NCBI RefSeq assembly: GCF_963921235.1
Contig: NC_086097.1
Location: 174,098,001 to 174,162,000, forward strand
Direction of reading: 5' to 3'
Length of the DNA: 64,000 nucleotides
Source: Mobula hypostoma
Lineage: Eukaryota
The notes beneath the pieces are model-generated. The model ran no database searches. It was not told where the DNA came from and worked only from the letters and a program-made list of their open reading frames with translations. Position numbers and translations under genes: made by a program. Shown in pieces: positions 13,261 through 19,484 of the stretch. Within the stretch, counting starts at the first letter, position 1, and the number at the start of each line of letters is the position of its first letter.

Positions 13261-14603
13261 TTTTGCTAAATTATATCCCTCTATCCCTGCATATTTGTGT
13301 GTTTAACAGCCTCTTAATGTCACTGTCAGATCTGCTTCCACCACCCACACCTTTATTCCCCTCCATAGATACTGCACAACTTTGCTGAATTCCTCCAGTA
13401 TTCTGTGTGTGTTGCTCCTTCCTGCCTCCTTCACCTTAAATGTATGTCTTCAAACATTTGGTACTTCAGCCCGGGGGAAAAAATTCTGACTTGTGTACCT
13501 ATCAATACCTCTTGTAATTTTATAAACTTCTAAAAGGTAAAAATAATAATATTCGGTGTTATTCTTCAGTTTTTTCTCCATCTCCTGTCTCAGGACAGTG
13601 GTGTCAATAACCAGGATAAAAGATACAATATGTTGGAGAAGAGGGGGTTCTTATTAAAGTTCAGATGAAGGTAATAAATAGTATGATTCCTCTTTGGCCA
13701 TTCTGAATGGTCTGACATTCAGTACTGGATAAGGAGACAGTGATCACAAACTCTAAGCGACCAATCCTTTTCACTGGTATTTGTCTCAAACTGAACCAGA
13801 TTGATTGCAGACTTAGAAACATAAAACACAGGCAGTACTGAAGGTGGCACTCTTGAAGGGAGTCAATGACCTAAGTCAGTGATTGTTCATCAGTAATCTA
13901 ATGGAAGGTCAGTGACCTGAAATGTTAACTGTTACTTTCTCCACTTACGCTTCAGGACCATGGTATTTTCTATTTTTATTTGAGTTCTAATATCCACGAT
14001 TTTTGGTTTTTGATGCCAGACTTGATGGACAGCTACATAGATAGGAAAGGTTGAAGATATGGACCAAAAGCTTAATATGGCTGAGTTAGACTGACGGACC
14101 TGTTTCCTTGCTGTATTACTTTGTAATGTTTGACATTGTTGTACTTTCGATCTTGTAGCTATCAATTAATGAGACCATTTATTTCAAGCTCTATAGCAGT
14201 TGTCTGACGCAGCCCTGCTAGTGAAGTCATCTGTTAACTCAAACACAAAACTGAAACTCAGTTAGTTTCTTTCATTCTTTCTAGAATATAAACACATAAT
14301 AGACATACAAGGCTGAATAGTCTTTCATCCTCATTCTATCATTCAATATGATTATGATCGTAACTTGATGGCATTTCCCTGCACTAAATTTATATCCAAA
14401 ACCTCTGTTTTGAAATACTGATGGTTGTGCTGGAAAGCATATTTCCATAACATGAATTGAATATAAGGCAATCAATTAATTACACTTTGTATTATGGAGA
14501 CCAAATTGGTTGTAACACACTTTTGATTGGGAACAAAAGGAACACATAAGTTGACAAGTGAAAGAGTGGGGGAAAGAAAGCAGGAAGAAAAAAGAAGTGT
14601 GGG

Positions 14604-14821
14604 TTTAATAACTCCAAAAGACTGAAGTAGGGTAAATACAGAAAGGCTTTTATTCGCTGTACAATACGACTTCCAAGCTAAGTGTCTGCCCCTGGACTGA
14701 GTGGGAGGGGCAAGGCAAAATCACCTTTATTCAGGGGTCTGTGGGAGGAGCCACGGGGCAGTCAGCAGAGGGGCATGTCCAGACGGTTAACCCAGTTACA
14801 ACATATATATGGTTTACCACA
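14604..14821 (-). repeat. Gypsy 3' LTR
   Basis: Roughly 90% identical by eye to 18774-18993; starts TGTGGTAAACC on minus; preceded by polypurine tract aaaaaaagggaggggtgaa. Confidence 0.95.
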
Positions 14822-14888
14822 TTCACCCCTCCCTTTTTTTAAGAGTCCCACGGAGTGAAGTGACTGACAATATTTACAACAAGTATAT

Positions 14889-15816
14889 TTACAGGTCAAG
14901 TCTATCAGGCGGTCGAGTCCGTCGCTGTGATCGACGTAGCACCGTTGGTGATTGCACCAGCGACAGTGGTTGTGCTGGCTCCGGCCTGACTTGAGGTGTC
15001 AGCACGTTAGGCGTCGGTAATCCCTCGTGCATGTGTGCCGTGCCCGGTATGGGAGTGTCGTGTGGTGTCTGTGTAGGGCTTGGAGTGCGCGGTGTCTGTT
15101 GGGTACATACATCGGTGGGTACGGGGTCAATAGTCACCACGGAGTGTTCAGGGTAGGGGCCCGGTGCTCCTGCGGGCGCCAGGTCGCGGATGGAGACCGT
15201 GTCCTCCTGCCCATCAGGTAAAACCACATAGGCACACGGGGGGTTCACATGAAGTAAGTGAACCCTCTGGACCATCGGGGAGTATTTATTGCTCCTCGCT
15301 GTGTTTCCGGAGCAGCACTGACCCCGGGGACGTCAGCCAAGTTGGTAGGGTGGTCCCAGTGGTTGACTTTCTGGGAAAAGAAAAGAGTCGCTCATGAGGG
15401 GTGGCATTGGTGGACGTGCATAACAGGGAGCGGATGGAGTGGAGTGCCTCGGGAAGGACCTCCTGCCAGCGGGAGACCGGCAGTCCCTTTGACCTGAGGG
15501 CTAAGAGTGTGGCTTTCCACACCGTGGCATTCTCCTTCTCCACCTGTCCATTCCCCCAGGGATTATAGCTCGTGGACCTACTAGTTGCAATTTCCTTAGC
15601 CAGTAGGTATTGGCGCAGCTCGTCACTCATAAACGAGGACCCTCTGTCACTGTGGATACAGCATGGGTATCTGAACAGAGTGAAGAGCTTGCGCAGGGCT
15701 TTTATTACTGACGTGGTAGTGGTGTCGGGGCAGGGGATGGCTAAGGGGAACCACGAGTACTCGTCGATAATGTTAAGAAAGTACACATTGCGATCGGTGG
15801 AGGGAAGGGGGCCCAT
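14889..15816 (-). pseudogene. Gypsy integrase (frameshifted)
   Basis: ORF 15286-15816: IIDEYSWF...IHSDRGSSFMS...YNPWGNGQVE (DDE core); ORF 14889-15275 is the C-terminal part. Confidence 0.9.
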
Positions 15817-15831
15817 AAAGTCAACACTCAG

Positions 15832-17828
15832 TCACTCAAAGGGGCGGGTGGTCTTGATGAGTTGTGCCTTTTTGGGTCGGTAGAAGTGCGGTTTGCACTC
15901 TGCGCTGACTTGGCAGTCCCTGGTCATCATCCTGATCCCCTCAAGGGAGTAAGGCAGGTTCCAGGCTTTCACAAAGTGGAAAAGCTGGGTGACTCCTGGG
16001 TGGCAAAGATCTACATGTAGGGCATATAGCCGGTCGATCTGCGCGCTGGTGCATGTTCCCTGGTATAGGGCATTGGAGGGCTCGTTGAGCTTCCCAGGCC
16101 TGTACATGATGTCATAGTTGAAGGTGGAAAGTTCGATTCTCCACCTCAGAATTTTATCATTTTTGATTTTGCCCCGCTGTTGGTTAATAAACATGAATGC
16201 GACTGAGCGCTGGTCAGTTAGCAGGGTGAACCTTTTGCCGGCGAGATAGTGCCTCCAGTGCCTAATAGCTTCCACTATGGCCTGGGCCTCTTTCTCTACC
16301 GCAGAGTGCCGAATTTCAGGGCCTTGAAGGGTACGGGAGAAGAACGCCACTGGTCTTCCCGCCTGGTTGAGGGTAGCAGCCAGCGCAAAGTCGGAGGCGT
16401 CACTCTCTACTTGGAAGGGAATGGACTCATCCACCGCATGCATTGCTGCTTTGGCAATGTCCCCTTTTATGCGGCTGAAGGCCGCACAGGCCTCAGCTGA
16501 GAGGGGGAATGTGGTGGACTTGACCAGGGGCGGGCCTTGTCTGCATAGTTAGAGACCCATTGGGCGTAATATGAAAAGAAGCCCAGGCACCTTTTGAAGG
16601 CTCTGAGGGTGTTGGGAAGAGTGAGTTCCAACAGGGGGCACATACGGTCGGGGTCAGGGACAATGACTTCATTCTCCACAACACACCCAAGGATAGCAAG
16701 TCGGGTGGTCCCAAACACACACTTGTCCTTGTTATAGGTGAGGTTGAAAGCTTTGGCTGCTTGGAGAAATTTTTGTAGGTTGTTGTCGTGATCCTGGCGG
16801 TCGTGACCACAGATGGTGATGTTATCCAGATAGGGGAACGTGGCCTTCAGTTAGCACTGGTCCACCATCCGGTCCATTGCCCTTTGGAAGACAGATACAC
16901 CATTTGTGACACCGAAGGGGACGCGCAGGAATTGATAAAGCCTGACGTCCGCCTTGAAGGCAGTGTAAGGGCGGTCCTCCCGGTGGATGGGGAGCTGATA
17001 GTAAGCGGATTTTAGGTCTATGGTCGAGTACACCTTGTACTGTGCTATCTGATTGACCATATCCGTGATGCGGGGTAGAGGGTACGCGTCGAGCTGCGTG
17101 AACCTATTGATGGTCCGGCTATAGACCACGACCATCCTATTCTTCTCCCCGTTCCGAACAACCACCACCTGTGCCCTCCAAGGACTTGTGCTTGCCTCAA
17201 TGACCCCCTCCCTGAGCAGCCGCTGCACCTCCGACTTAATGAAAGCTCTGTCCCCCGCGCTGTACCTCCTGCTTTTAGTTGCCACAGGTTTACAGTCGGG
17301 GGTCAGGTTGGCGAACAGCGGTGGGGGAGGGATCCTGAGGGTGGAGAGGCCGCAAGTGGCGTTGGTAGTGTGGCAGTTGGCATGATGTTGGGTGGGAAGT
17401 GCGGGTCGGTGTGTGTGTGTGGTCAGTAGCAGGGTATGTGATGTATCCCTACAAAACTGGGGAATTACGACAGTAATTGGTGGGAAGGGCCCATCATGCT
17501 CCATTGTCATGCTCTGGAAGTCGAGCTCCAACAGCACAGGGGCACACAGTTGAGGCATGACTAGTAATGTAAAGTCTGGATATTCTGTGCCCTGCACCAC
17601 TAGCGTCGCTACACAGCCCCCCCGGATGTCTGTTGTATGCGACCGGGAAGCCATGGTGACCCTCTGACTTACTGGCCATATCATGAGTCCGCAATGCTGC
17701 ACTGTGTCCAGGTGGATAAAACTCTCCGTGCTGCCTGTGTCAAACAGGCAGCTTGTCCTGCGCCCCTCCACCAGGATGTCCATCATTGACCTTGCGAGCT
17801 GGTGGGGGGTGCTTTGTTCGAGGGTCAC
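15832..17828 (-). pseudogene. Gypsy protease-RT-RNase H (stops and frameshifts)
   Basis: LFDTGS protease; IDLKSAYYQ...PFGV; FPYLDNITICG (YLDN at 16821-16832); VESDASDFA...VEKEA...TDQR RNase H; integrase H-H-C-C start. Confidence 0.9.
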
Positions 17829-18070
17829 GGAGGCCAGGGTTGAGTTGCTGTCTTGGTCCGGTGTGGTGGGGTGCCCTTGTGAGCACCTGTTGGTCGTAGG
17901 CGATGGGAGGGGGCACCGACCAAGATGGCCGCCTCCATGTTTCGCACATGGTGGCGGCGTGCAGGAAAGATGGCGGCCTCCATGTCTTGCACGTGGTGGC
18001 GGCGTGCAGGGAAGATGGCGACCCCCATGTCTTGCACGCGGCGCTGCTCGATCCTGCTCACGGTTTGGAC

Positions 18071-18739
18071 TTACAGACCTTGGCGAAGTGGCCCTTCTTT
18101 CTGCAGCTGGAACAGGTAGCTTGTCAAGCCAGGCAGCGTTTCCAGGGGTGCTTCTTGAGTCCGCAGAAGTAGCACTTCGCAGAGTCGCGACTGACAGCAG
18201 CCGAGGTCGATTTGCCGGCGGGTTGCAGGGACTCGCGAAGAGTTGTGCAGAGCGGCCTCCAGCGTGTCGGCCAGCTCGATTGCCGAACTTAAGGTAAGAT
18301 CAACTTTTTCCAACAGCCGCTGGCGCACATACACTGACCTGGTCCCCGTGACAAAGGCATCTCTCACTAGGAGCTCTGCATGCTGTACTGCTGTCAGTTC
18401 TTGGCAATTACAGGCTCGCATGAGCGTCTGTAGGGCCCGGACGAACTCAGCATTTGATTCCTCAGACCGCTGGTCTCGAGTCGCTAAACGATGTCGCGCA
18501 TAGATGCTGTTTATCGGCCGCAGGTATTGTCTGCCGTCATAGCTCGGCTGGTCTCTGATCAGCGAATAGGCCCGTGGACTGACCCTGGAGAGCAGAACTC
18601 TGCGCTTCACTGCGGAGTCGGTCGCTTTAACCTCCTGTAGGTACAATTCAAAGCAGGCCAGCCAGAGTTCGAAAGCATTTCCAGCTTCAGACAATTGCGG
18701 ATTGAGATCTAACTTGTTGGGTCTCAGGGCGTGTTCCAT
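18071..18739 (-). pseudogene. Gypsy gag (frameshifted) with double zinc knuckle
   Basis: ORF MEHALRP...RDAFVTG; a shifted frame gives CYFCGLKKHPWKRC and CSSCRKKGHFAKVC at ~18075-18180. Confidence 0.85.
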
Positions 18740-18764
18740 GCTTTAAAATTACAGCAAATAAAAT

Positions 18765-18993
18765 TGAAGCACCTTCAATAACTCCAAAAGACTGAAGTTG
18801 GGTAAAATACTGAAAGACTTTTATTCGCTGTACAATACGACCTCCATGGTGAGTGTCTGCCCCTGGACTGAGGGGGAGGGGCAAGGCGAAATCACCTTTA
18901 TTCAGGGATCTGTGGGAGGAGCCACAGGGGCAGTCAGCAGAGGGACGTGTCCAGACAGTTAACACAGTTACAACATATATTTGGTTTACCACA
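18765..18993 (-). repeat. Gypsy 5' LTR
   Basis: TG...CA on minus if read to 18765. Homology to the 3' LTR stops at 18774. Contains AATAAA boxes at 18897-18902 and 18820-18825 and TCAGT at 18867-18871. Confidence 0.9.
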
Positions 18994-19484
18994 GTGGGCA
19001 TTGGGGATGAGAGTCTGTTTCCATGTAAACTGTAACCTCTCTGCAGTAATCAGATACCCTTGTCTTTTAAGAAAACAGACTACTAGTTTCACCCCAGGAA
19101 GCCAATGGAAATTGACAGATAATTGTTTATTGATATTTGTGCAAGGAGATTTTATTATACAATATAATATTTGGCCTTTAATATTTAACAAAACAAACAC
19201 CTACTTTAAATAAACAAAATGCCTCAGCAGGTCAGGCAGCACCTATGACCTGATGAAGGGCCTTGGCCTGTTAATTCCTCATCATAGATGCTGCCTGACC
19301 TACTGAGTTTTTCAGAATTTTGTGTTTGTTGCTCAGGATTTCCAGTACACGTAGAATCTCTTGTGTTTATTTAAAAGCTGTGTGGAAAATTAACTTTGCC
19401 ACCACAGATCTGAAATTCTAGACCTGAACCCCCTTTTTCCTAAAAAAAAAAGGATCTAGTGCTTTTCTGGCGTGTACGTTGAAT

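Follow-up and report, generated by a model that had tools for sequence, protein, structure and literature searches.

Covariation between the primer-binding site and the LTR of a chromodomain-less animal Gypsy lineage, a candidate for tRNA-independent self-priming

The window, a stretch of 64,000 nucleotides of the Mobula hypostoma genome (NC_086097.1, positions 174,098,001 to 174,162,000), carries on its reverse strand a retrotransposon running from 18993 to 14604 and flanked by CCCAC duplications (Table 1). The features of a Ty3/Gypsy LTR retrotransposon are all present: LTRs bounded by TG...CA, a polypurine tract (PPT), a target duplication, Pfam matches to protease, reverse transcriptase (RT), RNase H and integrase in the Gypsy order, and no env gene. 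The best solved relative of the element is Ty3. The gag-pol frame, interrupted by stops and frameshifts in the window copy, also specifies two CCHC knuckles (identified from the translation) and an RT with the motif YLDN. The 5' LTR terminates with the sequence GGTGCTTCA; this end is confirmed by the 3' LTRs of 30 fetched loci, where in most cases the similarity gives way to flanking DNA straight after the CA. Five-bp target duplications also accompany other copies in the same genome. The 3' LTR of the window copy, though 9 nt short at its end, directly abuts the target duplication (14604-14599), and a few terminal bases are missing too from L032 and L037, two of the 29 other fetched loci. The remainder of the window (1594-61269) is filled with many SINE- or LINE-like repeats in both orientations.

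Table 1. Features of the Gypsy element in the window. Positions are those of the window.
Feature	Position	Strand	Basis
5-bp target-site duplication CCCAC, left copy	18994..18998	-	direct reading of the sequence
5' LTR, 229 bp, TGTGGT...GCTTCA	18765..18993	-	
TATA-like box, AATAAAGG in the window copy, TATAAAGG in 52 of 105 matches	18895..18902	-	putative function
Initiator TCAGT, predicted RNA 5' end near 18869 (LTR position 125)	18867..18871	-	TATA spacing and four inverted-copy stops
Putative self-primer segment, 14-16 nt, ending AATAAAA; predicted cut after 18819	18819..18834	-	
Loop between primer segment and primer-binding site	18771..18818	-	
Putative primer-binding site, one base past the CA of the LTR	18750..18763	-	
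gag-pol	14889..18739	-	translation and Pfam
Polypurine tract	14826..14840	-	
3' LTR without its last 9 nt; second partner copy at 14661-14648	14604..14821	-	
5-bp target-site duplication CCCAC, right copy	14599..14603	-	

The LTR is followed by a single A and by the 14-mer TTTTATTTGCTGTA (18763-18750), and the gag ATG (18739) comes 10 nt later. A preliminary description of this DNA had noted that the 14-mer is complementary to the LTR segment containing AAUAAA. This was confirmed, both for the partner in the window (TACAGCGAATAAAA, at 18832-18819 in the 5' LTR and at 14661-14648 in the 3' LTR) and for copies elsewhere in the genome. Three matches lie in the window, against 0.06 expected, and the leader (18869-18730) folds with a helix between the putative primer-binding site (PBS) and its partner (z = -3.19). 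A search of the M. hypostoma genome returned 3299 first-look candidates, 40 of which were scored, and pairing was assessed in 79 rows from 5' LTR copies, one of them spurious. All 14 positions form Watson-Crick pairs in 36 of these rows and at least 12 do so in 76; the duplex reaches 16 bp in many copies. Since the misses fall mostly at CpG, the single G-U pair of the window copy is probably a product of CpG decay. At 73 loci the partner has T in place of A, and 69 of these have the compensating A in the PBS (three are uncompensated, one is incomplete); the common partner faces a non-T base at the matching PBS place at only four loci. Stricter flanks yielded 488 LTR-PBS junctions in the genome. 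The subfamily carrying this A-T transversion counts as one inherited event, as does each other compensated change. Apparent compensations at CpG sites were left uncounted because independent decay mimics them. When the genome was queried with Gag proteins of rays and sharks, only the window's family appeared among the scored candidates.

Relatives were collected with an alignment of Pol, that of Gag being too variable for locus scans. This yielded 80 loci from metagenomes and 13 from genome collections, probably animal DNA within such assemblies. Forty-two gag starts were located in these loci, 38 of them with sufficient upstream DNA, and a perfect helix of 11-19 bp is found in 28 of the 38, as compared with shuffle means of 5.5-7.5. 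Out of 26 families (the window's own included), three were dropped for short upstream DNA and two for want of a gag start of this group, leaving 21. With the best-scoring copies as representatives, the motif CA-N-TTTA, an anchor chosen after the data had been seen, follows the LTR in 19 of the 21 and is missing from two. The one-base spacer recurs, the LTR end having been verified against a 3' LTR in eight families. The 12-mers of the 19 families all differ, and each pairs with its own LTR, perfectly in 17 families and at 11 of 12 positions in two, with one G-U pair among 228 positions. None of the 342 cross-family combinations reaches 12 of 12, and 22 reach 11. Thus, the self-complementarity is conserved and covaries among relatives. 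Single-step compensated changes distinguish L123 from L124 and L116 from L117. Loop length ranges from 21 to 68 nt, and a CC-led stem directly follows the partner in 12 of the 19 families (a raw count, without a shuffle control); in the family of the window copy, GCCT directly 3' of the primer segment can pair with AGGT near the LTR end, the window copy itself having GTCT. The preliminary description had seen no tRNA-type site, and a PBS starting with TGG occurs in none of the 19 families. L146 provides a control: on its reverse strand, near 2514, an unrelated element that neighbours a self-complementary one has an ordinary TGG site.

No chromodomain was detected among the Pfam matches of the 26 long relatives or in the last ORF of the window. 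In 17 of the 26, the RT motif YxDD is replaced by YLDN, YMDN or YIDN, with N at the second catalytic aspartate, as in the window frame near 16830; a literature search found no published account of this variant. Among named proteins, those of rays are closest, followed by those of sharks, nematodes, corals, crustaceans, a leafhopper and a fluke. In a tree of 29 rows, 27 form one group (95/98), and the other two are long outgroup rows. No relatives were found in viral contigs. Loci L196-L199 and L203 are animal-type Gypsy elements lying in contigs filed under bacterial genomes, a placement probably due to host contamination. Upstream of the partner in L166, L203, L155, L183, L143 and L180, pyrimidine-rich stretches ending in CAG resemble splice acceptors by eye; inside a T-rich LTR these could be due to chance.

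Of 105 matches to the 5' LTR, 86 contain the TATA-like WATAAAGG and 96 contain TCAGT, and the distance between them is 31-33 nt in 74 of the 79 copies that have both. Given this spacing, and given four aberrant copies (see below) whose inverted part ends at LTR positions 123-126, the RNA 5' end probably lies near 18869. Both observations indirectly support the start site and the internal position of the partner put forward in the preliminary description; the interval it gave, +37 to +50, is corrected to +38 to +51 when counted from the A at 18869, the predicted start lying 37 nt upstream of the partner. A search for LTRs running into an A-tail no more than 30 nt from the poly(A) signal found none, a negative that does not imply absence.

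A copied self-primer should at times be read past the duplex. On this rationale, the genome was searched for the LTR end joined to an extended complement of R. The pattern matched 57 loci and a looser probe added 10, bringing to light about 60 aberrant insertions consisting of an LTR, one A and an inverted LTR, most of them joined exactly at the 3' end of the partner. In the 57 loci, the inverted copy begins at LTR position 175 (18819), and it reaches positions 1-6, the start of U3, in 46. Twenty-six of the 57 are palindromes of about 405 bp with two U3 ends (for example G000:C1:70655564, among L209-L265), a mean arm identity of 0.955 and 5-bp target duplications, 22 of them exact and four with one mismatch. 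These 26 copies are therefore reverse-transcription products in which the plus strand had run into PBS sequence. At least 7 of the 57 loci continue beyond the LTR; the long ones examined return to the sense orientation and terminate in an ordinary 3' LTR, and six of seven have target duplications at their outer ends.

Four copies leave the LTR at the initiator, namely L210 and L215 at position 126, L228 at 124 and L344 at 123 (18868-18871 in the window). Four of four true stops thus fall in a preset interval of 7 nt out of about 135, with odds near 1 in 100,000 by hand calculation, a figure that a local hairpin or microhomology could bias. The stops sit in the loop of a hairpin formed by a C-run and a G-run, and at least two of the copies rejoin element sequence with microhomology. 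In L215 (G000:C5:118639158), the inverted copy up to position 126 is followed by three extra bases and then by sequence matching the 5-bp flank on the left, a single case that may reflect non-templated addition at an RNA 5' end. Several candidates were set aside: L226, where a SINE-like piece interrupts at 121 and the inverted LTR then resumes; L243 and L257, whose ends coincide with the edge of the search pattern; and L337 and L339, whose junction lies elsewhere than the LTR end. Read as integrated cDNA, the inverted products show that plus strands terminated within PBS sequence and that there were plus-sense templates whose end lay at the initiator, although such products could also arise if a plus-strand end annealed to any LTR-bearing template, whatever the primer. 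Their junctions and stops argue that the site 3' of the LTR is a working PBS and that the RNA 5' end probably lies near 18869.

Among the roles proposed for the pairing in the preliminary description, priming from an internally cut RNA gives the best reading, and on the sequence data it seems fairly probable that priming is independent of tRNA and carried out by an internal piece of R cut after TAAA. Transcription would start near 18869, and a segment of the 5' R at +38 to +51 (up to 16 nt) would pair with the site one base past the LTR. The RNA would be cut directly after ...TAAA, at the foot of the short CCT/AGG stem, probably by the element's own RNase H, by analogy with Tf1. The freed 3' end would prime the copying of U5 back to the cut, and the region between the cut and the poly(A) site would be used in the first strand transfer; the position of the poly(A) signal at or behind the primer end would thereby be accounted for. 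Later, the plus strand would copy the primer, so that the PBS would be rewritten from the LTR; such copying would hold the two in exact Watson-Crick step. A 51-nt primer implies a 35-nt unpaired tail that would need trimming or bypassing, a step for which no signal was found.

The primer might instead be the copy of R at the RNA 3' end which, when cut after TAAA, would pair with the PBS of the same or of a co-packaged RNA (circularisation). Run-on products are what copying of an attached RNA 3' end should give, and the course of most aberrant copies through U3, with at least 7 of the 57 continuing through the PPT into the integrase region before turning back to sense, is equally well explained in this way. 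However, a plus strand annealing to the 3' R yields identical products, removal of a primer kilobases long would be difficult, the local hairpin at the 5' end folds favourably, and four copies stop at the predicted RNA 5' end; priming from the 3' R is thus considered unlikely. Less likely still is the plain geometry of Tf1, in which the packaged RNA would begin at the partner (about 18834), its first 14-16 nt acting as primer, and the upstream TATA and initiator would serve another transcript. This mechanism is already known and needs no trimming; Tf2 is described as having alternative start sites (PMC5341516). Against it, inspection by eye showed no TATA or initiator match suitably spaced ahead of 18834, the TATA and TCAGT motifs are conserved at their distance, and the four stops lie at the initiator. 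Two other aberrant copies end at LTR positions 157-158, close to the partner's start and at the edge of the search pattern.

That the pairing mainly hides the poly(A) signal of the 5' LTR, with some other RNA as primer, is improbable. The preliminary description had proposed such masking, and AATAAA or ATTAAA does lie in the paired arm in 14 of the 19 families, in a helix that can form only at the 5' LTR. In the other five the pairing is kept with no hexamer in the arm (it is in the loop of one representative and absent from four), which weakens masking as the main role. Moreover, neither the fixed one-base register nor the near absence of G-U pairs would be needed for masking, and no other primer site is present; masking may be a side benefit of the pairing. 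Least probable is priming by a tRNA half or another small host RNA, with the LTR match as secondary; half-tRNA priming is known from copia lineages (PMC6317226). Although the host tRNA set was barely sampled (the best match to the 14-mer, among nine tRNA-Lys sequences from fetched loci, is 7 of 14), the 19 families have 19 different PBS sequences, each following its own LTR, and a compensated transversion has spread within one genome.

That the element primes itself in some form is very likely, all such readings taken together, and the arrangement appears to be a real, lineage-wide variant of a known mechanism. The fuller picture, in which a widespread chromodomain-less animal Gypsy lineage uses an internally excised R primer whose 3' end lies at the poly(A) signal and which is copied into each new PBS, run-on copying leaving integrated LTR palindromes that record RNA ends, is on balance favoured. 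If true, a large animal lineage, represented by thousands of candidate matches in the M. hypostoma genome, would need no tRNA, and the annotation of elements lacking a PBS would change. Independence from tRNA would presumably also place these elements outside control by 3' tRNA fragments. The lineage bears on whether hairpin priming is ancestral or has arisen repeatedly, a question raised previously (PMC3601003). From palindromic insertions, the intermediates of reverse transcription and the ends of the RNA can be read directly in a genome.

To our knowledge, self-priming has been demonstrated only for Tf1-type yeast elements, and predictions of it extend to related elements and a small number of plant groups; Repbase entries reportedly propose it for some insect Gypsy families. 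No published description of the primer site of the Mobula lineage was found in a search that had most subscription journals and Repbase Reports outside its reach. In retroviruses, which keep a tRNA PBS, the poly(A) signal of the 5' LTR can be occluded by a stem, AAUAAA being held in the polyA hairpin of HIV-1; in the Mobula element, the masking strand would be the PBS itself. The flatworm elements Saci2 and lennie resemble the Mobula lineage in a single Gag-Pol ORF, TGT...ACA LTRs and a variable PBS (PMC12471100). The flatworm elements are described as having 4-bp target duplications and 8-9-nt sites for tRNA-Leu or other tRNAs (PMC12471100, PMC4558846), unlike the 5-bp duplications and the lack of TGG seen here, a comparison made at the level of description. 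For the plant elements Tcn1 (gypsy) and TAR (copia), self-priming was predicted from PBS-LTR complementarity (PMC6317226); lineages and hosts differ from those of the Mobula element.

The closest likeness in mechanism is to Tf1 and Tf2 of Schizosaccharomyces pombe, Tj1, Tosmo, Tcry and the Tf1/sushi chromoviruses, where the PBS pairs with the element's own LTR and not with a tRNA 3' end. Accounts of the Tf1/sushi group describe an own-LTR PBS, flanking duplexes and an RT-mediated cut (bioRxiv 10.1101/2022.12.06.519325, PMC4600332, PMC5341516), the Tf1 structure comprising a primer duplex and flanking duplexes with cleavage by RT (bioRxiv 10.1101/2022.12.06.519325, PMC5341516). The preliminary description had called the Mobula element unlike Tf1. 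Its layout is Tf1-like, with a putative primer from its own LTR and a short stem right after it; the difference holds for the predicted primer position and for lineage. The Tf1/sushi primer is the RNA 5' end, whereas that of the Mobula lineage would lie at +38 to +51 and, unlike its counterpart, ends on a poly(A) hexamer or TAAA. The Tf1/sushi integrase bears a chromodomain, a domain missing from all 26 long Mobula-lineage relatives. Priming by an excised piece of R would thus entail a geometry unlike that of Tf1 and, probably, a separate origin.
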